Shown here in pieces: positions 3,076-57,901 of a stretch of DNA of 64,000 nt. Position 1 is the stretch's first letter, and the number at the start of each line of letters is the position of its first letter. The stretch is from Halogeometricum limi (lineage in GTDB: Archaea; Halobacteriota; Halobacteria; Halobacteriales; Haloferacaceae). Position numbers and translations under genes: made by a program. The stretch is taken from contig NZ_FOYS01000001.1 in NCBI RefSeq assembly GCF_900115785.1, positions 875,582 to 939,581 on the forward strand. Reading direction: 5' to 3'. Below the pieces are notes generated by a model that did not search any database, was not told the DNA's origin, and was given only the letters and a program-made list of their open reading frames with translations.

Positions 3076-3555
3076 ATGCTCGACTTACCGCTGGACTCGT
3101 GGTACGCGTGGTTGGGGCTCTCGCTCGCGGGCGTCGCCCTCGTCGGCGCCGCCTCCGGCCTCCCGACCCTCCCGCCGCCGAACGCCGACGCGGCGGCCGC
3201 CACCGTCGACCGCGTGGCCGCGACGGAGTTCGAATCGACGGCGGAACATCCGCTGGACGCGACTGCGGTCCGCATCGGAACGCGTCGCCTCGCGGTCAGG
3301 AACGACGCCGGAACCGCGCACGCGACGTTCGCCTTCGGCCCGGTCACGCCCGTCCCGGCGAACGACTCGCGTCTCCGCGACGTGATTCACGGCGCGCATC
3401 CCTCGTCTGTCTTCGACTCGCCGACGGCGTTCCAGCAGGCCGTCGTCGACGCGCGGGCCCGCGGGAGCGACGCCCCGTGGCGCGAGGTGGACCGCACGCT
3501 TCTCGTTCGCCGCACGACTTGGGAGGGAGTCGATGTCGTCCTCGTGGACGCGTGA
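3076..3555 (+). CDS. Hypothetical membrane-anchored protein of the pilus-like operon
   Basis: 159 aa with an N-terminal hydrophobic segment (WLGLSLAGVALVGAASG). It overlaps the next gene by 23 nt, indicating a tight operon. Confidence 0.5.
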   Translation: MLDLPLDSWYAWLGLSLAGVALVGAASGLPTLPPPNADAAAATVDRVAATEFESTAEHPLDATAVRIGTRRLAVRNDAGTAHATFAFGPVTPVPANDSRLRDVIHGAHPSSVFDSPTAFQQAVVDARARGSDAPWREVDRTLLVRRTTWEGVDVVLVDA

Positions 3556-4848: not shown

Positions 4849-7800
4849 TGCGACTGGCAGACGACGACCGCGCGCGCGTCCCGTTCGCTCTCGTCGGCGT
4901 CCTCCTCCTCGTCGGCAGTTCGACGTTCGCCGCCTCTCTCGCCGCGCCCGACGTGGGAACCGTGGACCGGTCGACGGACGTGGCGATGGACCGCGTCGAC
5001 GCCGAGACGACCGCCGCACTCCGCGTGGCCGTCCGCGAAGCGGCCCGCGCGGCCGCGAGAGACCCGGTGACGACGGCCGGAAACACGTCCGCCGGTCGCG
5101 CACTCGGGACGAACCGGACGTTCGAGAACTACCTCCGACTCCGGGTCGCGGTGTCGGCCAGAGACGCGCTCTCGTCGGTCGAGCACCGGCGGAGTACGAC
5201 GACGGCGAACGCGTCGCTCGCACCGCTCTCCGCCGTCGGTGCCGCCGGTGCGATGCGGAACGTCTCGCTGTCTGCCGTCGACGGCGGACGCTCGCTCTCC
5301 GTCACCGTCCGCAACGTCTCGCTCGTCGCCTCCAGAGACGGACGCGTGGTCGCAGAGCGGACCGTCTCGCGCCGCGTCACCGTCGCGGTGCCGGTGCTCG
5401 CACTCCACGCGCGGACGACCGACTACCAGCGACGGCTGAACCGGTCGCCGGTGTACGCTCCCGGACTGGCCCGCCGGACGACGGCCGGCCTCCTCGCGGT
5501 CACCGAAGCGCGGGCACTGGCCCAACACGCGAACGCACCTATCGAGAACGTCCTCGGGAACCGCCACGTCGCACTGTCGACGAACGCGGGCGTCCTCGCC
5601 GCACAGCGCGCTTCCTTCGGCCGAGCGGACCCGGACGCGGCCCGCGGCGTCCGCGCGGCGACGCTCCGAACCGGCGCGGAGGACCTCTTCTCCGCGTCCG
5701 GCGCTAGCGGCCCGGCGACAGAGCGACTCCTCGCGGCGGCACCGACGGCGAACCCGTCGCCGCCGCCCGAGACGATGCCGACGAAGACGCTCACCGTCGG
5801 CGTGAACGAGACGGCCGACGACGCGTTTCTCGCCCTCCTGCGCGAACACCGCGACTCGCCCTCGCTGCGGAGTCTCTTCCGCATCGCGTACACGCCGAAC
5901 GTCACCGTCGCCGCCGACGTGACCGACTCCGCGACGGGGCGCAAACCTGCGCCCGACGCGCCCGGTCCCTCGTGGTCGCTCGTCCGCGAACGCGCCGACC
6001 GCGAGGTGTCCGCGGAAGCGACTTCGGGGGTCGAAAGTTCGCCCGCCGTCGCCGAGGGGTCGCGCGTCTTGGAGACGGCGACGCGACGGGTCGTCGTCGA
6101 ACACACCGTCACGCGGACGTGGCGCGGGGCCAACCGGTCGCAGCGAACGACGACGGCGACGTGGACGGACCGCCACCGCGTCCGCGTCGACGTGGTCGGG
6201 TCGCTTCGCTCGCTCCCCGGGCCGAGTCGCTCCGTGACGCCGTTGTTCGAGCGAGGTGGTGCGCTCTCGGGGCCGAACTTGGCGGGAGTCGACCGCCGCG
6301 CGAGCGACGAACTCGCCGCTCGCGGCGGTGCGGACGCCGTCGCTCGGCGCGCGGTCGAGGGGCGCGTGGACGGACGGCCCGAACGACGCCTCGGCGAGCG
6401 TCCGGACGGACTCTATCCGTGGGTGTACGAGGACGTGAAGACGCTCCGCGAGGAGGTTCGAAACCTCTCCGTCGAGGTGACGGCACGGGACACCGCCACC
6501 GGAAACGCCAACGCCGCGGCGGCACTCGCGGCCGTCGTCCGCGACCGGCGGCGCGACCTGATCGACGCACCCGCGAGGTACGACGGCGTCTCGGACCGCG
6601 TGCGCGTCGCCGCCCGGTCGGCGTACCTCGACGCGGTCCTCGCCCGTCTCGACGAACGCGCCGGGGAGACCGCGGGTCAGAACCGCAGACTCGAAACTGC
6701 GCTGGACTCCCGTGGGGTGAACGCGACGGCGACCAGAGAGCGACTTTCGACACCGCTCGTCCGGGCGGAGACCGGGCGGCGAAACGCGAGCGACGACGCC
6801 GGCTTCGTCCCCGACGGCGACCCGGCGTATCTCTCGCTGTCAAGCGTCGACGGTCGGGCCGTGGACGGCGTCAGCGACGACGCCTCTTACACGCCGCTCG
6901 CGGCGCGAAACACGAACCTGTTCACCCTCCCGTACGGTGACCTCGCTGACTCCGTCGTCGACGGCGTCCTCGGTTCGGGAGGCGTCCCGCTCAGGACCGC
7001 CGGCCGTGCACTCATGGCGGCGAACCGAACGCTCGCCGTCCGGAACGACTCGACGCTCCGCGACCGACGAGATGGTCTGACGCCGGCGGTCGCGAACTCG
7101 TTGCGAACGGTCGAACTGACGGCCGTCGACGTCGTCGAGTCGGAGGCGGGGCGCTCCGACACCGCCGCCGAGGCCGCCGTCGACGCCGGACTCGCCCGCT
7201 GGGACTCGCACGGAGAACGCGCCGTCGCGACGGCGAACGGGTCGCTCGCGGCCGCCGTCGCCGCCGAGGCGGCACCGAACGACGCGACGACGCACGACCG
7301 CCTGGAGACGACGCTCCGGGTCGAACTCCGCGAGGAGGCGGCCACCGACAGCGTTCGGGTCCCGAGAGCGGCCGTGAACGAGACGGCGAGTCGAACGCGG
7401 ACGCTCGCGACCGAACTCGCCGACGAGGCGGCGTCGCGCGGGGCCGACCGGGTCACCGGTCGCGTGTTGAACGGGACGCTCGGGTCGGTCCCCGCGGGTC
7501 TCCCCTTGTCGCCGACGCTGAACCCCTGGGTAGCGACGACGAACCTCTGGGTCGTCGAAGCGCACGGCGCGTACGCCCGATTCGCCGTCTCGACCGGTGA
7601 CGACGCGGTGCCGACGACGTACGTTCGCGACGGGTCCGTCGTCAGACTCGACGTGGACGGCGACGGCGAACGCGAACTCGTCGGGTCGAACGAGCGAGTC
7701 GGATTCGAGTTGCGAACCGTCGTCGTCGCCGTCGTCCCGCCGGGCGGAAACGGCGTCGGCGACGTGGACGGCGACGCCATCGAGACGTCGTCCGCGTGGT

Positions 7801-8341: not shown

Positions 8342-8347
8342 CGACCG

Positions 8348-9250
8348 ATGACGCGCGCTCTCGTCATCGGTTGTGGCTACGTCGGCCTCGAACTCGGGCG
8401 ACAACTGCTCGAAGACGGACACGACGTGACCGGCGTTCGGCGGTCCGACGACGGCCTCTCGGCGGTCGAAGCGGCGGGTCTCACCCCCGCCCGGGCCGAC
8501 GCGACCGACCCAGACTCGCTCTCGTCGCTCCCCGACGCCGACTGGGTCGTCTTCGCGGCGAGTTCGGGCGGCCGCGGGGCCGACGCCGCCCGCCGCGTCT
8601 ACGTCGACGGGTTACGGACCGTCGTCGAGGAGTTCGGCGGACGCGACTCGCCGCCCGAGCGACTCGTCTACACCTCCTCGACGGGCGTCTACGGCGACCA
8701 CGGCGGCGACTGGGTGGACGAGGAGACGCCGCTCGACCCGACGACGGAGAAGACGCGCGTCCTCGCCGAAGCCGAACGCGTCGCCGTCGAGGAGGCCGCC
8801 GACGCGGGCATCGACGGGTCGGTCGCTCGGTTCGCGGGGCTGTACGGTCCGAACCGGTATCGGCTCGACCGCTATCTCTCGGGTCCCGTCACCGAGGGCT
8901 ACCTCAACATGGTCCACCGCGACGACGCCGCGGGGGCGGTTCGGTTCCTCCTCACCGACGACGCCGCGCGCGACGAGGACGTCCTCCTCGCCGTCGACGA
9001 CGAACCCGCCGACAAGTGGGCGTTCGCGGACTGGTTGGCCGCGGAGTGCGGCGTCGACAGTCCACCCAAGCGGACGAAATCGGAACGACTGTCCGACGGC
9101 GACCTGTCGGAAGCGGCGCGACGACGCATCCTGACGAGCAAACGGTGCTCGAACGGCCGACTCCGCGAGTTGGGGTACGAGTTCGCCTACCCGACGTACC
9201 GCGAGGGCTACCGCGCCGCGATAGCGGCGTACCGAGGCGAGAGCGCGTAG
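8348..9250 (+). CDS. NAD-dependent epimerase/dehydratase (SDR family)
   Basis: N-terminal Rossmann motif LVIGCGYVGLEL and length and pattern typical of extended SDRs. Confidence 0.75.
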   Translation: MTRALVIGCGYVGLELGRQLLEDGHDVTGVRRSDDGLSAVEAAGLTPARADATDPDSLSSLPDADWVVFAASSGGRGADAARRVYVDGLRTVVEEFGGRDSPPERLVYTSSTGVYGDHGGDWVDEETPLDPTTEKTRVLAEAERVAVEEAADAGIDGSVARFAGLYGPNRYRLDRYLSGPVTEGYLNMVHRDDAAGAVRFLLTDDAARDEDVLLAVDDEPADKWAFADWLAAECGVDSPPKRTKSERLSDGDLSEAARRRILTSKRCSNGRLRELGYEFAYPTYREGYRAAIAAYRGESA

Positions 9251-13365: not shown

Positions 13366-14463
13366 ATGGAGTACGTACAGGAGCGGGTGACGACGCTCCA
13401 CGACTTGGCCGACCCGGTTCCGGACGCCCCGACGGACCGGACGGCGGTTGTCGTCCCGATGACCGAACGCGAGTACGCGGGGCTGGCGGCCGACAGCGTC
13501 CTCTCGGAACTGGAGCGAATCGACCCCGCTCGGGTGGTCGTTCCGCTCCGCGCCCCCGCCGAACGGGTCGGCCCGTTTCGCGAGTGGCTCTCGGAGTACG
13601 ACCTCTCGCTCGACGTGCTGTGGTGCGACGGCCCGCGCGTCGCCGACGTGCTCGACGCCGAGGGACTGAACGGTGCGAGCGGGAAGGGCCGCGACGTGTG
13701 GTTGGCGCTCGGGTGCGCCGCGAGAGAGGAGTTCGTCGTCGTCCACGACGCCGACACGAAGACGTACGACCGGTCGTACGTCTCCCGTCTGCTCTTTCCG
13801 CTCGCGAACGGCTACCAGTTCTCGAAGGGCTACTACGCACGCGTCGAGGACAGACGGCTGTACGGCCGCCTGTTCCGCCTGTTCTACACGCCGTTGGTCC
13901 GGGCGCTCGCGGACGAGACGCCCGCCCCGATTCTGCAGTATCTCTCGGCGTTCCGCTACGCGCTGGCGGGCGAGTTCGCCGCGACGAGCGAGTTGGCGCG
14001 GTCGATTCGCGCGCCGCGGTCGTGGGGCCTCGAAGTCGGCGTCCTCGGCGACGCCTTCGACTTCGCGGGATTCGACGGGGCCGCACAGGTCGACCTGGGT
14101 GCGTACGAACACGACCACCGCGCCGTCTCCGGGCCGACCGGACTCTCGGACATGAGCGAGTCGGTCGGCGAGACGCTCTTGCGGACCGTCACCGACCACG
14201 GCGTTGCGCCCGACTTCGAGACGTTACCCGCCCGCTACCGCGACACCGCGCTCCGACTGGTCGACCAGTACGCCGCCGACGCGGCGTTCAACGGCTTCGA
14301 GTTCGACCGGGCGGGCGAACGCGAGCAAGTCGACGCCTATCTCGACGCCGTCGTCGAACCGACGGGCGCGGACGACAGACTCCCGGCGTGGTCCGACGCG
14401 CCCGTCTCGGCCGAGGAAGTCTGCGAGGCGGCCACCGCCGACGCCGAGGAGGTGTCGTCGTGA
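13366..14463 (+). CDS. Glycosyltransferase, glucosyl/mannosyl-3-phosphoglycerate synthase-like (GT2/GT81-like)
   Basis: VVVHDADT DxD-type motif; 365 aa. The reading frame was verified against the ORF track. Confidence 0.6.
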   Translation: MEYVQERVTTLHDLADPVPDAPTDRTAVVVPMTEREYAGLAADSVLSELERIDPARVVVPLRAPAERVGPFREWLSEYDLSLDVLWCDGPRVADVLDAEGLNGASGKGRDVWLALGCAAREEFVVVHDADTKTYDRSYVSRLLFPLANGYQFSKGYYARVEDRRLYGRLFRLFYTPLVRALADETPAPILQYLSAFRYALAGEFAATSELARSIRAPRSWGLEVGVLGDAFDFAGFDGAAQVDLGAYEHDHRAVSGPTGLSDMSESVGETLLRTVTDHGVAPDFETLPARYRDTALRLVDQYAADAAFNGFEFDRAGEREQVDAYLDAVVEPTGADDRLPAWSDAPVSAEEVCEAATADAEEVSS

Positions 14464-22608: not shown

Positions 22609-24336
22609 ATGACCGACCCGGCCGACCTCACCGTGACGCTCGTGGACGGCTACGTCGACGAACCGGCGCACTTCGGCGTGCCGCCGTACATCTCGACGTA
22701 CCCGCGCTTTACGGCCGGTGCCATCGTCGACGCCGGCGTCCCCGAGGAGAACGTCACCTACCACACCATCGACGAACTCCGCGACGACAGACAGAAGTGG
22801 GCCGACGTGGCCGACGCGGACCTGATGGTGTACATCGGCGGGATGACCGTCCCCGGCAAGTACGTCGGCGGGACGCCCGCCGAACCCGACGAGGTGCGCG
22901 AACTCGCGTGGACCGCCGACGGCGTCTCCGTCATGGGCGGTCCCATCCGCTTCGGCGTCGGCGAGGAGAACGCCGGCGCACAGGAGATGAAGCGGCAGAA
23001 CCTCGACTACGACTTCCTCGCGATGGCCGACGTAGAGGCGGCCGCGTACGACCTCGTACAGAACGGACTGGAAGGGTTCGACAACCGCTACCGCGACAAC
23101 GACGAGTTGGACCGCTGGGCCGCCAAGGGGGCGTTCGTCGTCGAACAGCACCCCAACCACCCCGACTACCTCATCTGCGAGATGGAGACGTCTCGCGGGT
23201 GTGCGTACCGATGCTCGTTCTGCACCGAACCGATGTACGGCAACCCGGCGTTCCGGACGCCCGAATCCGTCGTCCGCGAAGTCGGCAACCTCGCCGACAG
23301 AGGTGCCAAGCACTTCCGTCTCGGCCGACAGGCGGACATCCTCGCGTTCGGCGGCGACGGCGAGGCGCCGAACCCCGACGCCCTCCGGAAACTCTACGGC
23401 GGCATCCGCGAGGTGGCTCCGGAGTTGGAAACGCTTCACCTCGACAACATGAACCCCATCACGGTGGTGAACTGGCCGGAGAAATCCCGCGAGTGCATCC
23501 GCATCATCGCCGAACACAACACGCCGGGCGACACCGCCGCGTTCGGCCTCGAATCCGCCGACCCCGTCGTACAGGAGGCGAACACGCTCAACGTTACCGC
23601 GGACGAGTGTTTCGAGGCGGTCAAGATAGTGAACGAGGAGGCCGGATGGCGTCCCGGCGAGTCGCCCGCCGACGCGCCGACGCACGGCCCCGACGCGGCG
23701 AATCGGCTCCCGAAACTCCTGCCCGGAATCAACCTCCTACACGGCCTGAAAGGGGAACGCGAGGAGACGTTCGCGCACAACAAGCGCTTCCTCCAACGCG
23801 TCTACGACGCCGGTCTGATGGTCCGCCGAATCAACATCCGGCAGGTGATGGCGTTCGAGGGGACGGAGATGGCCGACGAGGGCGCGAACATCGCGAAGGA
23901 CCACAAGAAACTGTTCCAGCAGTACAAGAAGGAAGTCAGAGAGGAGATAGACCGGCCGATGCTCCGCCGCGTCGCCCCCGCCGGAACCGTCCTCCCGAAC
24001 GTCCATCTGGAGTACCACCAGGACGGCAGGACGTTCGGACGGCAGTTGGGGACGTATCCGCTCCTCGTCGGTATCCCCGGCGAACGCGAACTCGGCCGGA
24101 CCATCGACGTGGCAATCGTCGACCACGGCTATCGCTCCGTCACCGGCGTCCCGCACCCACTCGACCCGAACGAGGCGAGTATGGACGAACTCACTTCGAT
24201 TCCGGGCATCGGCAAGCGCACCGCGGGCGACATCGTCGTCAACCGCCCGTACGCCTCCGCCGACGAGGTGTCCGTCGCGGACGTGGACCTCTCGAAGTTC
24301 ACCGGAAGCTACCCCGTGGAACCGCGGGCGGAGTGA
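22609..24336 (+). CDS. Radical SAM protein with an N-terminal Rossmann-like domain and a C-terminal helix-hairpin-helix
   Basis: CAYRCSFC (CxxxCxxC) radical SAM motif and an HhH motif LTSIPGIGKRTAGDIV. Confidence 0.8.
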   Translation: MTDPADLTVTLVDGYVDEPAHFGVPPYISTYPRFTAGAIVDAGVPEENVTYHTIDELRDDRQKWADVADADLMVYIGGMTVPGKYVGGTPAEPDEVRELAWTADGVSVMGGPIRFGVGEENAGAQEMKRQNLDYDFLAMADVEAAAYDLVQNGLEGFDNRYRDNDELDRWAAKGAFVVEQHPNHPDYLICEMETSRGCAYRCSFCTEPMYGNPAFRTPESVVREVGNLADRGAKHFRLGRQADILAFGGDGEAPNPDALRKLYGGIREVAPELETLHLDNMNPITVVNWPEKSRECIRIIAEHNTPGDTAAFGLESADPVVQEANTLNVTADECFEAVKIVNEEAGWRPGESPADAPTHGPDAANRLPKLLPGINLLHGLKGEREETFAHNKRFLQRVYDAGLMVRRINIRQVMAFEGTEMADEGANIAKDHKKLFQQYKKEVREEIDRPMLRRVAPAGTVLPNVHLEYHQDGRTFGRQLGTYPLLVGIPGERELGRTIDVAIVDHGYRSVTGVPHPLDPNEASMDELTSIPGIGKRTAGDIVVNRPYASADEVSVADVDLSKFTGSYPVEPRAE

Positions 24337-24351: not shown

Positions 24352-24654
24352 TCAGCGACGGGCCGACTCGTCCGAGCGGTGGTCGCCTCCCTCCGCGTCA
24401 GTCTTTCCCGATTCGGGGGCGAGGAGGACGGCGACGCCGACGGTCGGGACGAGAAGCGCGAGCACGGCGAGAAGCAGTATCACCGCCGTCGCCGTCGGTC
24501 CCGAGGCCACGCTGGAGACGACTGCGAGAACCGCGTACAGCGCCACCGGCGCGCCGACAACCGCGAGTGCGACGACGCGCAGTCGCCAGCGGCGACTCTT
24601 CGGGGCGTATCTGCCGAGAAGCGTCGTATCGGGTGCGTCGTGAGACCAGCTCAT
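24352..24654 (-). CDS. Small membrane protein (100 aa, two TM helices)
   Basis: ATG at 24654 and two hydrophobic segments. The ORF track extends further upstream in the same frame. Confidence 0.5.
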   Translation of the reverse strand: MSWSHDAPDTTLLGRYAPKSRRWRLRVVALAVVGAPVALYAVLAVVSSVASGPTATAVILLLAVLALLVPTVGVAVLLAPESGKTDAEGGDHRSDESARR

Positions 24655-24784
24655 TCCATCACAATTAGTAACGAGTGGCAAACAGTTTTCGGTGGTGCGC
24701 GCGGTCGGACCGTTCGGACGGCAGTGATTCCGAGTCGTACCGTGCCGAGCGAACACAGTGAGCGAGGCACGGCCTCTTTTTGGT

Positions 24785-24897
24785 CGAGCTTTTTGCAACG
24801 TTCGCGTGACGCAACGCGTCACGTGAGCCAGCGAGAACGCACTGCGTTCTCGCGAGAGAGGTGCGCCGAAGGCGCACCCGAGTCCGCAAAAAGCTCG
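24785..24897 (-). ncRNA. Candidate structured RNA or DNA element. A 12-bp closing stem (24785-24796 with 24886-24897) encloses three perfect hairpins (24803-24825, 24831-24853, 24859-24879), each with a 3-nt loop.
   Basis: All pairings are read directly from the sequence. The element starts immediately after the TRAM gene stop codon (TAA at 24898-24900 on the minus strand). Confidence 0.4.
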
Positions 24898-25326
24898 TTA
24901 GAAGTCCTCTTCGATGACTTCGCCGACGGCGAAGTTCGACTTGACTTCCGTGACCTCTATCTTCACCCGGTCGCCGACTTCCGCGCCGGGGACGATGATG
25001 ACGTAACCGCGTTCGACGCGGGCGATACCGTCTCCTTGCTTTCCGATGTCTTCTATCTCCACGTACCGGAGTTCACCCACTTCGACGGGGGGTTGCGGTT
25101 CTGACGACGGCGTCGTCTGGGTAGTCGTCTCGCCGGACGACGACTCGTCGATTGCTTCACGAGAGATGAGAGCGACGCGGTACGTCTCGCCGGGTTCGAC
25201 GGTGCCGGCCTCGACTTCGCGCTTCGGAACTTCGACCACGTAGCGGTCGTCCTCCGCGCGCACGTCGGTGTTGAACAGACACAGGAGTTTATCTGAGATT
25301 TCCACCGTATAGACCTCCAGACGCAC
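24898..25326 (-). CDS. TRAM-domain protein (RNA-binding, cold-shock-like)
   Basis: C-terminal GELRYVEIEDIGKQGDGIARVERGYVIIVPGAEVGDRVKIEVTEV matches the TRAM domain. GTG start. Confidence 0.7.
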   Translation of the reverse strand: MRLEVYTVEISDKLLCLFNTDVRAEDDRYVVEVPKREVEAGTVEPGETYRVALISREAIDESSSGETTTQTTPSSEPQPPVEVGELRYVEIEDIGKQGDGIARVERGYVIIVPGAEVGDRVKIEVTEVKSNFAVGEVIEEDF

Positions 25327-49783: not shown

Positions 49784-51619
49784 CTAGTCCAGTTCGGCGG
49801 TCTCACCGTCTCTGGACTCTCTCACGTCCCTGCTCTCTTCGACGGCCGTCGTGAGCGAGACGTTCAGGCCGAGCATCGAGGCGTACCCGCCGACGACGGT
49901 GATGACGTTCTTTACCGCGTGGTCCAACACGGCCGCGCCGATGGCGACGGGGTAGCCGACGGGCGTGAGGCCGATGACGAGAAGCGTGAACGCGCCCTCG
50001 TAGAGTCCGACGCCGCCGGGCGAGAGGGGGAGCACCTTCGCGAGGTTGCCGACGCTGACGGCGAAGAAACTCACCGAGACGAGTTCCACCGTCGCGAGGC
50101 CGGGGTCGAACGCCTGCAGGACGAGCATCGCCGTCACCACGTCGAGCGTCCAGATGACGAGGCTGGAGAGGCCGACGCGTGCGAACCCGCGTCTCGTCCC
50201 GGCGACGGACTGCAGGTCGTCGACGAAGCGTTCGACGATGCCCGCGACGAACTCGGCGTAGGAGTCGGAACTCGCCCGGCGAACGAGCGACCCCGCGAGG
50301 TTGCGGTCGGACTGCGCGGAGGCGACGATGGCCGTCACGGCGACGAGGGCGGCGACGGCGACGAAGACGGCGACGCCGACGGCGACCTGTCCGGCGCCCT
50401 CCGCGCCGACGACCGTCTCCGCCAACTCGGCGGTCTGACCCGTCACCGTGTACCCCACGAGGACGATTCCCGCCAGTAAGGTGATGGTCAGGAGGTCGAA
50501 CACGCGTTCGGCCGCGAGCGACGCGAACCCGGAGGGGTACGGGATTCCGCGTCTGGCTTTCACCACGTACGCGCGGATGAAGTCACCCATCCGCGCGGGG
50601 AACACGAGGTTCCCGGTCTGACTGATGAACACCGCGCCGGTGAGGAACGTCCACCGCTCTTCGAACCCCAACTCTTCGAGGATGTCGCGGTAGCGGACGC
50701 CCCTGAGAGGCCACGAGAGCACGTAGACGAGGGCGGCGACGCCGACGAGGACGGGGTCGGCTTGCTGCATCTCCGTCAGGACGGCACCGAAGTCGAGATA
50801 CTGCGTCATCAGGAGGACGGCGAGGACGGTGAGCACCGCGCCGGCGACGAGTGCGACGCGTTGGGTGATGCGCGGGCGAACGGCGAGTTGCCACCACGTC
50901 CTGACGATTTGGCTCCCCATCCCGAACACGTCGCGGACGAGGTCCACTTTCGTGTCGCCCTTCGGCGTCCACGACACGGGGAACTCGTCGATGCGGTAGC
51001 CCGCACGCTGTGCGCGGACGAGCATCTCCGTGTCCCAGAACCAGTGTTCGTCCTCGACGTCGTCGCGTAACTCCTCGAACACCTCGCGACTGAACGCCTT
51101 GAACCCGCACTGGTGGTCGCGGATGCTCGACCCCAAGAGCAGGCGGACGAACAGGTTGAATCCGCGACTCGGGACGCCGCGCTTCGTCGGCCGGTCGGCG
51201 ATTCGGCCGGGCATCCACCGCGACCCGGTGGCGACGTCGTACCGGCCCGAGCGGACCCGTTCGACCAACTCTTCGAGGTGCTTCATGTCCGTCGCGAGGT
51301 CGGTGTCGAAGTAGACGAGAACGTCACCCTCGGCGGCCGCGAAGGCGTGTTCGAGTGCGCCGCCGCGACCCAGTCGTCGGTCGCTGTGGAAGTGTCGAAC
51401 TCTGTCGTCCGCGGCGGCCATCGCCTCGGCCAACTCCGGCGTTCGGTCGTCACAGCCGTCTTCGGCGACGATGACTTCGTACGTGCCCGACGGCAGGAAC
51501 CGAGAGAGCGTCCGGAGCGTCGTCTCCACCGTCGACTCGATGGTCTCCGCCTCGTTGTACGCGGGGAGGACGACGCTCACTTCGACCCCTGCGGACTGGT
51601 CGGTGGTCGGGCGACCCAT
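49784..51619 (-). CDS. GT2 glycosyltransferase fused to a flippase-like (LPG-synthase-TM-like) domain
   Basis: N-terminal VSVVLPAYNE...DGCDD...DTD GT-A motifs, followed by about 8 TM helices. Confidence 0.75.
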   Translation of the reverse strand: MGRPTTDQSAGVEVSVVLPAYNEAETIESTVETTLRTLSRFLPSGTYEVIVAEDGCDDRTPELAEAMAAADDRVRHFHSDRRLGRGGALEHAFAAAEGDVLVYFDTDLATDMKHLEELVERVRSGRYDVATGSRWMPGRIADRPTKRGVPSRGFNLFVRLLLGSSIRDHQCGFKAFSREVFEELRDDVEDEHWFWDTEMLVRAQRAGYRIDEFPVSWTPKGDTKVDLVRDVFGMGSQIVRTWWQLAVRPRITQRVALVAGAVLTVLAVLLMTQYLDFGAVLTEMQQADPVLVGVAALVYVLSWPLRGVRYRDILEELGFEERWTFLTGAVFISQTGNLVFPARMGDFIRAYVVKARRGIPYPSGFASLAAERVFDLLTITLLAGIVLVGYTVTGQTAELAETVVGAEGAGQVAVGVAVFVAVAALVAVTAIVASAQSDRNLAGSLVRRASSDSYAEFVAGIVERFVDDLQSVAGTRRGFARVGLSSLVIWTLDVVTAMLVLQAFDPGLATVELVSVSFFAVSVGNLAKVLPLSPGGVGLYEGAFTLLVIGLTPVGYPVAIGAAVLDHAVKNVITVVGGYASMLGLNVSLTTAVEESRDVRESRDGETAELD

Positions 51620-56107: not shown

Positions 56108-57901
56108 TCACGTGTCTCCCCCCTGTCTGCGAGCGACGAGTCCCGCGGCCGCGAGTATCGCGACGACCGCGACGGCGGGCGACAGCGAGACGCCCGTGCT
56201 CGTCGCGTCGGACGGGTCTAGCGGCGTCTCCGAGCGAACGGGGTACGGCGTCGTCGTCGCCGTCGGCGTGGCGGTGGGCGTCGCCGTCGCCGTGGGTGTC
56301 GGCGTCGGCGTCGCCGTCTCCGTCGGCGGCGCGCCGAACGAGACGCGCGCCGTGTCGTTGACGACCCACCCCGAGCGCTCGTAGGCGGTGTCGTTCCGCG
56401 AGTACGCCTCGTCACCGTCGTCGGTAACCAGTTCCGCGCGCAACGTCTGCTCGTCGTACAACGGAAGCGACAACTCCGCGCTCACGTTTCGGTGTCTCCC
56501 CGGCGCGAGGTAGTCGGACCGTCCCACGCCGTCGCCGTTTGCGTCGTGGATGCGGACGAACCCGCCTTCGGGAACCTCGACGCGAGAGAGCGTCACCGTC
56601 GCGCCGTCGGGCGACTGGTCGTCGAACCGGACGCTCGCGTTCGGCGCGACGAGGGTCACCTGCTGTGCGGTCTGCAAGAAGAACTCGTCGCCCGAGTTGA
56701 CGTCGTCGGTCCACAGCGTCGCGTTCACGCCGCGCGTCACGTCGCCCACGTCGAACGTCGTTCGGTACCGTCGCTGACTGTCCACCGTCGCCTCGCTGAT
56801 GAGGAGGAACGCGTTCGGTTTCGGCGACCGGAGGCGGACTTCGAGCGTCGTGTTCGGCGCGTACGTCGTCGTTCCCTCGACGGCGAACGACTCGTTCTCC
56901 CACGGGTAGTGGACGGAGTCGTTCGACGGCGACAGGGTCGCCACGGGGTCGACGAGGGTGAACGACCGTGTCGCCGCCGTCGTCTCCGACTCGACGAGGC
57001 CGTTCTCCTCGGTGAGGGTCAGGCGCATCTCGTACTCGTTCCGGGCGGCCTGTTTCCGAACGTCGAGGGCCGACGTGTCCAGTACGAAGTAAATCGTATC
57101 CGCCTCGAACGACGGGTAGACGGAGACGTTCGCCTCCGGGTCCGCCGTCGCCACGTACTCGTCGGGCTGGCGGTTCGGACCGGGCGCGGTCTGTGAGACG
57201 TTCAGTTTGATGCCGTTCGCGGCGGCGTCGCCCGCCAGTCGGTCGGGTTCGAGCGCCGTTTCGAGACCCGTCTCGTGAACTTTCATCACGACGTAGTCGC
57301 CGCGGGCGACGGTGGTTCCCGGCGACATCGTCCCGACGAGTTCGCCCGTGTCGGCGTTCCCGTCCGCGTCGGTGTTCGTCGACGCGCCGAACGACCCGGG
57401 CGTGACGAACGACTCCGCGCTCATCTCGCCGCGCGGTTCGACGGTGAGCGTCGACAGGTCGCGTTCGTCGCCCTCGACGGTGACGTTCATCAGGTAGTCC
57501 GCGGGCTCTATCGGCGCGTCCGGTGCGGGCGACAGGAGCGTCGCGTCGCCCCCGTCGACGTACTCGTCGGGGTCCGCGGCCGTCGTCGCGTACGTGTCGA
57601 TGACTATCTCGTCGGTTCCGCTCCCGCCGAGCGCGATGCGGAGGTGGTAGCCGTAGTCGGGGCCGCCGATAGTGACGTTCGCCGGACCGGAGTGGCTCAC
57701 GGTGAAACGCACCTCGTCGCCTCGGGTGACGTTCACGTTGTCGCTTCCGAACGAGCCGCTCGCTTCCGTCTGGAGGGTGCGTGCGGACTCGTAGCCGCTG
57801 GGTGCCCCGTGCTCGTTGGCGAGGGCGAGCGCGGGGGTGGGGCCGGCGGCGACGAGCAGTAACACCGCGGCCAGCACCGTGAGGGTGTGTGTCGATTGCA
57901 T
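56108..57901 (-). CDS. Secreted cell-surface glycoprotein with a Thr/Pro-rich linker and a C-terminal TM anchor (PGF-CTERM-like but lacking PGF)
   Basis: Signal peptide LTVLAAVLLLVAAG. Many N-x-S/T sequons. TPTPTPTATATPTATPTATTT linker followed by a C-terminal hydrophobic segment plus RRQ. Confidence 0.75.
   Translation of the reverse strand: MQSTHTLTVLAAVLLLVAAGPTPALALANEHGAPSGYESARTLQTEASGSFGSDNVNVTRGDEVRFTVSHSGPANVTIGGPDYGYHLRIALGGSGTDEIVIDTYATTAADPDEYVDGGDATLLSPAPDAPIEPADYLMNVTVEGDERDLSTLTVEPRGEMSAESFVTPGSFGASTNTDADGNADTGELVGTMSPGTTVARGDYVVMKVHETGLETALEPDRLAGDAAANGIKLNVSQTAPGPNRQPDEYVATADPEANVSVYPSFEADTIYFVLDTSALDVRKQAARNEYEMRLTLTEENGLVESETTAATRSFTLVDPVATLSPSNDSVHYPWENESFAVEGTTTYAPNTTLEVRLRSPKPNAFLLISEATVDSQRRYRTTFDVGDVTRGVNATLWTDDVNSGDEFFLQTAQQVTLVAPNASVRFDDQSPDGATVTLSRVEVPEGGFVRIHDANGDGVGRSDYLAPGRHRNVSAELSLPLYDEQTLRAELVTDDGDEAYSRNDTAYERSGWVVNDTARVSFGAPPTETATPTPTPTATATPTATPTATTTPYPVRSETPLDPSDATSTGVSLSPAVAVVAILAAAGLVARRQGGDT

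Follow-up and report, generated by a model that had tools for sequence, protein, structure and literature searches.

Directly downstream of a TRAM gene in the archaeon Halogeometricum limi lies a 113-nucleotide (nt) element that can fold into four stems (positions 24785 to 24897 of the 64-kb stretch of contig NZ_FOYS01000001.1 analyzed here, which as a whole is called the window). We consider it probable, at about 0.8, that this element consists of two nested members of a palindromic repeat family dispersed in the Halobacteria, namely, a basic unit that follows the stop codon and a hairpin doublet inserted into it. The four-stem structure and the insertion were both observed, as was the occurrence of the repeats in multiple copies and in multiple genera. 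On the best reading, nested palindromic repeats give rise to the four-way fold as a by-product; the element folds equally well on both strands, as DNA palindromes do.

Structure of the element

According to a preliminary description of this locus, a perfect 12-bp long-range stem encloses three perfect hairpins with 3-nt loops, in a cloverleaf-like arrangement not expected by chance. The long-range stem was confirmed (Table 1), and its 12-mer had only two matches in the window when up to one mismatch was allowed. The three hairpins inside it were likewise confirmed; they are near-perfect and all have 3-nt loops, the hairpin at 24805-24823 being perfect over 8 bp and longer with G-U pairs.

RNA folding of the TRAM-sense (minus) strand gave -68.9 kcal/mol (z = -6.9) and that of the plus strand -72.6 kcal/mol (z = -8.3), and none of 200 shuffles folded as well; DNA parameters gave z = -7.2 and -8.8 for the two strands. 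The predicted fold was a four-way junction; a cloverleaf-like fold beyond chance was borne out (z from -6.9 to -8.8). When the whole window was scanned with a sliding segment of 120 nt, the element was the sole segment of about 61% GC among the most stable folds, the others having 73 to 81% GC. No second module with a T-run/A-run stem was found in the 64 kb.

Orthologous spacers and the basic unit

Gene order is kept across relatives (Lactamase_B, CxxCxxCC, TRAM, and then a convergent radical-SAM gene), and the TRAM protein is 87 to 91% identical to its Halogeometricum and Halopelagius counterparts. A basic unit was common to the window and 8 of the 10 orthologous spacers of the Halogeometricum/Halopelagius clade. 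It consists, in order, of the stop codon, N2-8, CTTTTT(G/A)C, nnnTCGGG, one GC hairpin with a 3-nt loop, and a 3' part made up of CTCnnCG(C/T)AAAAA, CTSG-ACCA, AAAAG, and a second GC stem (CCGYGCC...GGCRCGG). The window has the same layout, with a T5 tract that begins 5 nt past the TAA on the minus strand (24888-24892), the 12-bp stem, the 3' box, the A-run, and the second GC hairpin; its 3' side reads AAAAAGCTCGACCA, AAAAGAGG, and then CCGTGCC...GGCACGG. The 3' arm of the outer stem belongs to the conserved 3' box AAAANCTSGAYCA. The inner hairpin occurs at the same place, changed but still paired, in the 8 orthologous TRAM spacers and in nonorthologous units, and the terminal GC stem is kept in the orthologs with a compensatory T:A-to-C:G change. 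The spacers of L003, L080, and Haloferax contained no basic unit and no visible replacement.

The number of hairpins differed between these spacers. The inner hairpin stands alone in H. rufum, H. luteum, Halopelagius fulvigenes, and the metagenome contigs L081, L082, and L083, while Halopelagius inordinatus has two additional perfect hairpins (10 bp, 3-nt loops) between ACCA and AAAAAG and H. pallidum has four additional hairpins at the same site, which is empty in L081, a close relative of H. pallidum. The ACCA/A-run linker is the insertion point of the hairpin arrays in H. pallidum and Halopelagius inordinatus. Only in the window is the outer stem interrupted by a gain of about 57 nt (two hairpins), which lie between ...CTCTCGC and AAAAAGCTCG; none of the 8 other orthologous units has this module. 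Read along the minus strand, the insert consists of ...TC, hairpin A', TGGCTCA, and hairpin X. Judged from the sequences, two of the four helices are a lineage-specific insertion, and the helix number is not conserved.

In the model that we favor, the basic unit comprises, directly after the stop codon, N2-8, T5-6, a GC hairpin with a 3-nt loop, A5-6, CTSGACCA, an A-run, and a second GC hairpin. Pairing of the T-run with the A-run forms the outer stem, and this layout places T-runs, which are the archaeal termination signal, on both strands. In the lineage of the window, the loop of this unit received the A'-linker-X module of about 57 nt as an insertion.

Dispersal of the basic unit

The 3' box AAAANCTSGAYCA had 16 matches in 447 kb of haloarchaeal loci, compared to 0.04 expected, and half of them (8 of 16) lay at genes other than TRAM, in Halobium, Haloferax, and Salinigranum and at a second H. 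pallidum gene. Within the stretch inspected, a T-run and an inner hairpin stood upstream of the box in at least 14 of the 16 matches. We gathered 21 units, from Halogeometricum, Halopelagius, Salarchaeum, Halobium, Halalkalicoccus, Haloferax, Salinigranum, and Halorubrum; the basic unit was found behind unrelated genes in at least six other genera. Gene context was judged by a test combining stop codons with G+C content at third codon positions (GC3), and most of the 21 units had, 2 to 8 nt ahead of the T-run, the stop codon of a gene with coding-like GC3.

Conservation of the unit was measured by the box count and by a count of stem pairs (MAFFT leaves the variable inner hairpin out of register). 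In an alignment of 12 units, the outer stem was paired in 86.6% of the cells, with compensatory changes at 3 pairs, compared to 36 to 49% in a control with slid partners. Without its insert, the window unit was 86% identical to nonorthologous Halobium units, the same value as with the orthologous units of H. rufum and Halopelagius inordinatus. Between the TRAM unit of H. rufum and a non-TRAM unit of H. pallidum, identity was 95%, and the two units of Halopelagius fulvigenes had species-specific changes in common.

These comparisons bear on the proposal that the element is a dedicated structured RNA, that is, a stable small RNA (sRNA) or a 3' untranslated region (3'UTR) or processing element of TRAM whose four-helix junction is functional. 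The sense-strand fold is indeed very stable, and compensatory changes, which the preliminary description had wished to see sought in orthologs, keep the outer, inner, and terminal stems paired. However, the other two of the four helices are unique to this genome, and both the number and the position of helices vary in the orthologous spacers (1, 1+2, 1+4, 3, or none). In addition, the basic unit also stands behind unrelated genes, the opposite strand folds just as well, as expected for DNA palindromes, and a T5 terminator signal lies ahead of the structure. Rfam gave nothing relevant for the window region at E values up to 10 and no match at the gathering threshold for 12 related loci. A dedicated sRNA or TRAM-specific 3'UTR structure is thus very unlikely, and what looked like a designed four-helix junction is better described as a composite of an ancestral hairpin within a T-run/A-run stem and a two-hairpin insertion.

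It is scarcely credible that the element serves as a cis-regulatory leader for the small membrane-protein gene. As first described, it abuts the TRAM TAA, and this gene follows downstream on the same strand, but the end of the element is 130 nt upstream of the ATG and a separate promoter-like box precedes the gene at -34 to -25, some 100 nt past the element, so that the element probably lies outside the membrane-gene transcript. The unit, moreover, stands behind many unrelated genes and is kept in three genomes in which the small gene was not called and the radical-SAM gene is called next (H. luteum, Halopelagius inordinatus, and H. pallidum). The box AAACTGTTTG may act as a promoter, to judge from its sequence and position; in L008 and L083, the homologous gene is preceded by a similar box, GGAAACTGTTTTG.

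A 23-nt hairpin family found across the class

The two inserted hairpins resemble a hairpin that recurs throughout the class. The prototype, GCCAGAACGC-N3-GCGTTCTGGC, is 23 nt long, with a 10-bp stem and a 3-nt loop. A scan of 185,579 species genomes (596 Gb) for GCSAGAACGC-N3-GCGTTCTSGC returned 67 exact matches, compared to about 2 expected at uniform composition, and 42 of the 67 were in Halobacteria, spread over about 19 genera. Some genomes carried several copies (7 in Halolamina salifodinae and 4 in Halobium salinum). Nearly all haloarchaeal copies lay within arrays of other perfect hairpins of 8 to 12 bp with 3-nt loops, separated by linkers of 5 to 7 nt, and many of these arrays were placed between ACCA and GAC-AAAAAG of a basic unit. 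Many copies were 50 to 350 nt from gene 3' ends, and several were between convergent genes. No match to the prototype was found in viral contigs. The preliminary description had named a multi-copy repeat family as an outcome that would speak against its proposal, and such a family is what emerged, both the unit and the hairpin occurring at many loci.

The loops were highly variable, with 25 different triplets among 46 copies, often mutual reverse complements (GGA/TCC, AAC/GTT, and TCT/AGA). Asymmetric flanks (5' YRTC and 3' TG...) were kept in 40 of 43 copies, indicating that the prototype hairpin is normally the first member of a doublet. Doublets and arrays had the termini GTCGCCAGAA...TTCTGGCGAC. 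The 374 kb of family loci contained 67 additional hairpins of at least 9 bp with 3-nt loops, while the window had 1 in 64 kb. In B-type hairpins, the inner stem positions covaried perfectly (ATC/GAT, ACC/GGT, GTC/GAC, and GCC/GGC).

Family members have perfect stems of about 10 bp, 3-nt loops, and linkers of 5 to 7 nt that start with TG, and hairpins A' and X of the window, a doublet joined by TGGCTCA, fit this design. A single compensated change, C:G to G:C, separates A' from the class-wide hairpin GCCAGAACGC/GCGTTCTGGC, and X is one compensated pair apart from GCGAGACGC-GTT-GCGTCTCGC of locus L030. Hairpin X itself had no match in all the collected loci. The A' variant had 8 matches in metagenomes, none of them at TRAM or at a clearly haloarchaeal locus. 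Four of these 8 were hairpin doublets downstream of gatD in an archaeon with nonacidic proteins: the JGI metagenome contigs L085 (4990-5250), L086, L088, and L091 carry doublets of GCGAGAACGC-N3-GCGTTCTCGC whose partner hairpins have 10 to 11 bp and 3-nt loops, directly downstream of gatD in L085 and beside the same gene end in the other three. As GatD appeared nonacidic by eye, a similar repeat design may exist outside the Halobacteria.

Further repeats were seen in the course of the scan. About 25 occurrences of the prototype palindrome were in bacteria with no relation to each other (among them Pseudomonas, Enterobacteriaceae, and Patescibacteria; loci including L016, L017, L019, L025, L031, L041, L051, L061, and L062), which is above simple chance; these copies are probably independent terminator or repetitive extragenic palindromic (REP) hairpins. 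A second composite type consists of 23-nt hairpin arrays between inverted copies of (G)TTCGAGAGAGC...GCTCTCTCGAAC, with TGATG/CATCA linkers; it has no T-run/A-run unit and often lies away from gene ends (L021 1290-1500, L027 ~700-900, L053, L057, L067, L079 ~6060-6200, and L056). Finally, Halegenticoccus (L075) and Halarchaeum (L077) have two conserved noncoding blocks in common, one of about 300 nt with 89% identity (L075 6518-6823 and L077 165-468) and one of about 200 nt with 85% identity that contains a hairpin array (L075 6871-7067 and L077 1940-2143). The blocks are 47 nt apart in L075 and stand on either side of a 2-hydroxyacid dehydrogenase gene in L077. L075 had no Rfam match, and the blocks are possibly another repeat or noncoding RNA.

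Insertion of hairpin modules

Three comparisons of filled and empty sites revealed clean insertions with flank repeats of at most 2 nt: the window compared to the 8 orthologous units, H. pallidum (L006, filled) compared to L081 (empty), and a 56-nt doublet in an ISH34-family IS200 element on Haloferax mediterranei pHM300 that is missing from four other copies. The pHM300 doublet sits just 5' of the near-terminal palindrome of ISH34. Its host, L092 1094-1610, is an IS200-type tnpA that belongs to the ISH34 family, lacks annotation, and contains two frameshifts; the four relatives without the insert are intact. We therefore rejected the idea of hairpins as native termini of an IS200-type element, the doublet being an insertion lacking in the four other ISH34 copies; the sole IS200-type tnpA adjoining a doublet is thus an insertion target and not a partner.

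The doublet was also found within protein-coding genes of Halolamina, Halomarina, and Halorientalis. Five coding copies passed a strict coding-frame filter (L022, L023, L044, L069, and L070), all in one common frame that encodes the peptide (E)SxSDSxxSQNAxRSGD. In an aldo-keto reductase and a NIF3 protein, the module corresponds to an in-frame insertion of 17 to 19 amino acids relative to solved homologs: residues 101 and 102 are contiguous in 3d3f, and the NIF3 protein leaves an 18-residue gap in 1nmo. The intragenic modules are at L070 ~3470-3545, L023 ~5960-6025, L018, L028, and L044 in Halolamina, L022 in Halomarina, and L069 in Halorientalis, the last in the N-box region of a histidine kinase. 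The modules are mobile, as read from the filled and empty sites and from the in-frame insertions into enzymes.

The genes around hairpin loci are ordinary housekeeping genes. Suspected mobility genes were rejected on inspection: the TnpB candidates beside the arrays in L015 and L057 are aminotransferases, and the open reading frame (ORF) between repeat pieces in L077, considered as a transposase, encodes the 2-hydroxyacid dehydrogenase. The earlier suggestion of a DNA-level element resembling a MITE (a miniature transposable element with inverted repeats) survives in modified form, but a canonical MITE was rejected, as there is no duplication longer than 2 nt at the three filled/empty sites and no related transposon was identified.

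These insertions also bear on a purely local origin, in which template-switch or snap-back replication errors would have produced palindromes unrelated to the copies elsewhere. The perfect stems and the loop triplets often reverse-complemented between copies (GGA/TCC and AAC/GTT) fit hairpin-mediated inversion. The same stems, linkers, and flanks recur, however, at dozens of unrelated loci and in unrelated genera, and independent insertions have the same module length and layout. Family-wide identity largely refutes this explanation, which we regard as extremely improbable for the element as a whole, although such errors could still account for the flipping of loops and the perfection of stems.

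The 23-nt hairpins form doublets or arrays bounded by GTC...GAC, which insert beside or inside other palindromes. We propose that they target such palindromes, namely, the loop of the unit, the ACCA/A-run junction, and the ends of insertion sequences. Their spread would be selfish and nonautonomous, like that of REP sequences and bacterial interspersed mosaic elements (BIMEs) or the small mobile repeat (SMR) elements of Haloquadratum, and would proceed via single-stranded hairpin intermediates and a mobilizing enzyme.

Termination signals

In Haloferax volcanii, T-stretches are the intergenic termination motif, and T5C terminates at 95% efficiency (PMC7237163). At this locus, each strand carries T5 tracts (minus, 24888-24892; plus, 24777-24781 and 24790-24794), and the minus-strand tract is what is expected of an oligo-T terminator, namely, at least 5 T residues on the coding strand soon after the stop codon. 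TRAM transcription would mostly stop at this tract, which begins 5 nt past the stop codon. As most TRAM transcripts would then end before the structure, only read-through transcripts would adopt the complete four-way RNA fold. On the plus strand, the order of GC stem, T5, and second T5 resembles a terminator of transcription that enters from the radical-SAM side, and the T-runs and hairpins of the opposite strand may block antisense transcription. The idea of a terminator structure, put forward at the outset, survives in this modified form, with signals on both strands, but not as a TRAM-specific 3'UTR element.

Selfish repeat or domesticated element

Several observations weigh against a selfish, dispersed repeat as the full explanation. 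The window has only one copy in 64 kb. The exact window variants GCGAGAACGC and CGTGACGC were at no other haloarchaeal locus searched, so that the family membership of A' and X rests on one-pair compensated differences, a common linker, and a common architecture. No transposase was linked to the hairpins: TnpB-like proteins were 2 of 144 neighboring ORFs, both 0.5 to 2.4 kb away, and Y1_Tnp was absent among the 25 of 212 Pfam families listed for these ORFs. Finally, 20-nt stems that are identical class-wide, combined with near-random loops, are hard to explain by recent selfish spread alone and suggest selection or recognition by a conserved factor.

It is possible, if rather doubtful, that the host has domesticated the element, with a conserved haloarchaeal factor recognizing the hairpins or the unit; this would be compatible with a repeat family and would add a function to it. 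This factor could be a termination factor or, as with REP/BIME in bacteria, a nucleoid protein or gyrase; a 3' structure that blocks RNases is a further candidate, and the copy in the window would end or stabilize the TRAM transcript or shape local DNA topology. All 20 stem positions are identical over about 19 genera while the loops are free, the inner stem positions of B-type hairpins covary perfectly, the unit has a fixed polarity and starts 2 to 8 nt past stop codons, and T-runs are present on both strands. On the other hand, the invariance of the stem is partly built in by the exact-match search, the in-frame insertions into enzymes and the insertion into an insertion sequence look selfish, and the unit is missing from the L003, L080, and Haloferax spacers without visible replacement.

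A further reading is unlikely. In it, the 23-nt hairpins would represent a novel type of mobile element of archaea, served by dedicated recognition or mobilization machinery conserved across the class Halobacteria, and the unit would be a mobile bidirectional terminator cassette. Such machinery would read the stem, as DNA or RNA, place no constraint on the 3-nt loop or regenerate it, target palindromes (such as T-run terminators and insertion sequence ends), and insert in frame into proteins.

Comparison with known systems

By behavior, the closest known system is REP/BIME (PMC3733652, PMC3333891, PMC2817692). Like these, the haloarchaeal repeats are GC-rich palindromic units of 20 to 40 nt, occur in arrays with short linkers, lie mainly downstream of genes in unidirectional or convergent arrangement with occasional intragenic copies, and bear, at one of their ends, an unpaired tag that is short and conserved (YRTC in this family, to be compared with REPs tagged by CGTC). 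Proposed roles in termination, mRNA stability, and supercoiling are a further common point. Unlike REP/BIME, they are archaeal, with perfect stems and loops that are fixed at 3 nt yet hypervariable. One hairpin sequence is found class-wide instead of in a species or genus, many hairpin sequences are mixed in each array, and no RAYT-like gene was found nearby among the Pfam families listed for the neighboring ORFs. REP/BIME typically exceed 100 copies per genome; the scans here returned up to 7 exact copies of a single hairpin type in one genome (Halolamina salifodinae) and 1 copy in the window.

Within the haloarchaea, the closest elements are SMR-A of Haloquadratum walsbyi (HqIRS42/43/55; PMC3119063), to judge from their published description. 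SMR-A elements are about 80 to 120 bp long, have inverted terminal repeats, no transposase, and no target duplication, and their mobilization was called "enigmatic" (PMC3119063). The hairpin modules likewise have inverted termini and no target duplication and, in the pHM300 copy, insert at near-terminal IS605-type palindromes. In contrast, they are built from 23-nt perfect hairpins (doublets of about 56 nt and four-hairpin arrays of about 105 nt), occur in many genera, and are mostly tied to a terminator-like unit at gene ends. Like Rickettsia palindromic elements (RPEs), they have in-frame copies in conserved enzymes that are translated as a short hydrophilic peptide; unlike in RPEs, the modules are shorter and the copy in the window is intergenic, and RPEs are not arrays of 23-nt hairpins.

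With archaeal oligo-T terminators and bacterial bidirectional terminators, the unit has in common a GC hairpin flanked by T5-6 tracts, one set on either strand, between gene ends. It differs from bacterial terminators in that, whichever strand is read, the T-run comes ahead of the hairpin (U-tract, hairpin, A-tract), the reverse order, and from gene-specific terminators in being a dispersed homologous repeat. We found no published description of the family in the searchable literature, and a recent REP survey that includes archaea covers no haloarchaea; the family is apparently undescribed.

Features of the locus

Table 1. Component parts of the four-stem element and neighboring features (positions in the window)
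Feature	Position	Strand	Sequence	Remarks
TRAM gene	24898-25326	minus		Pfam TRAM, 4.6e-16; TAA at 24898-24900
Outer stem	24785-24796 / 24886-24897	plus	CGAGCTTTTTGC / GCAAAAAGCTCG	12 bp, perfect
Outer stem, 5' arm (TRAM sense)	24886-24897	minus	CGAGCUUUUUGC	Holds T5 24888-24892
Inner GC hairpin	24860-24878	plus	GGTGCGCC-GAA-GGCGCACC	8-9 bp; ancestral hairpin of the basic unit
Inserted two-hairpin module	24797-24853, ends +/-2 nt			About 57 nt; A', linker, X
Hairpin A'	24831-24853	minus	GCGAGAACGC-AGT-GCGTTCTCGC	10 bp
Linker A' to X		minus	TGGCTCA	Fits family linkers TGGCTNA
Hairpin X	24805-24823	minus	CGTGACGC-GTT-GCGTCACG	8 bp perfect, longer with G-U pairs
Outer stem, 3' arm (TRAM sense)	24785-24796	minus	GCAAAAAGCUCG	Plus strand reads CGAGCTTTTTGC, T5 24790-24794
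ACCA and A-run linker	24773-24784	minus	ACCAAAAAGAGG	Second T5 on plus strand, 24777-24781
Terminal GC stem	24740-24772		CCGTGCC/GGCACGG	19-nt loop; T5 next on plus strand
Promoter-like box	24679-24688	minus	AAACTGTTTG	Precedes the ATG of the small membrane ORF by 25-34 nt; outside the repeat
Small membrane ORF	24352-24654	minus		100 aa, two helices; neighbor, outside the element
Radical-SAM gene	22609-24336	plus		Convergent with the TRAM side

The small membrane ORF had no Pfam match. Over 55 amino acids, it is 51% identical to the N-terminal part of a SHOCT-domain protein of 152 amino acids encoded at the same position in H. rufum, and, at 100 amino acids and without the C-terminal part, it may be a truncated or diverged version of that protein.

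Elsewhere in the window, further perfect inverted repeats were seen at 13760-13783, 8344-8371, and 50570-50597, outside the hairpin family; one is a perfect palindrome of 24 nt (AGACGTACGACCGGTCGTACGTCT), and the other two are 10-bp stems that enclose loops of 8 nt. The most stable predicted 120-nt folds of the window lie at about 56160-56390, with about -77 kcal/mol on the plus strand, 78% GC, and a marked strand asymmetry.

Significance

Once the repeat is recognized, the locus is ordinary; what is unusual is the family, with its class-wide stems, hypervariable loops, terminator-like carrier, and in-frame insertions into proteins. Recognizing it removes a tempting false lead, since the cloverleaf-like fold is not a TRAM-specific riboregulator. 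If confirmed, the family would be an archaeal counterpart to bacterial REP/BIME and to the RPEs of Rickettsia, and its existence would help annotators to avoid calling such repeats sRNAs. It would also be tractable in the Haloferax and Halobacterium models, in which the spread of the hairpins, their effect on termination, and the class-wide conservation of a 20-nt stem could be addressed.

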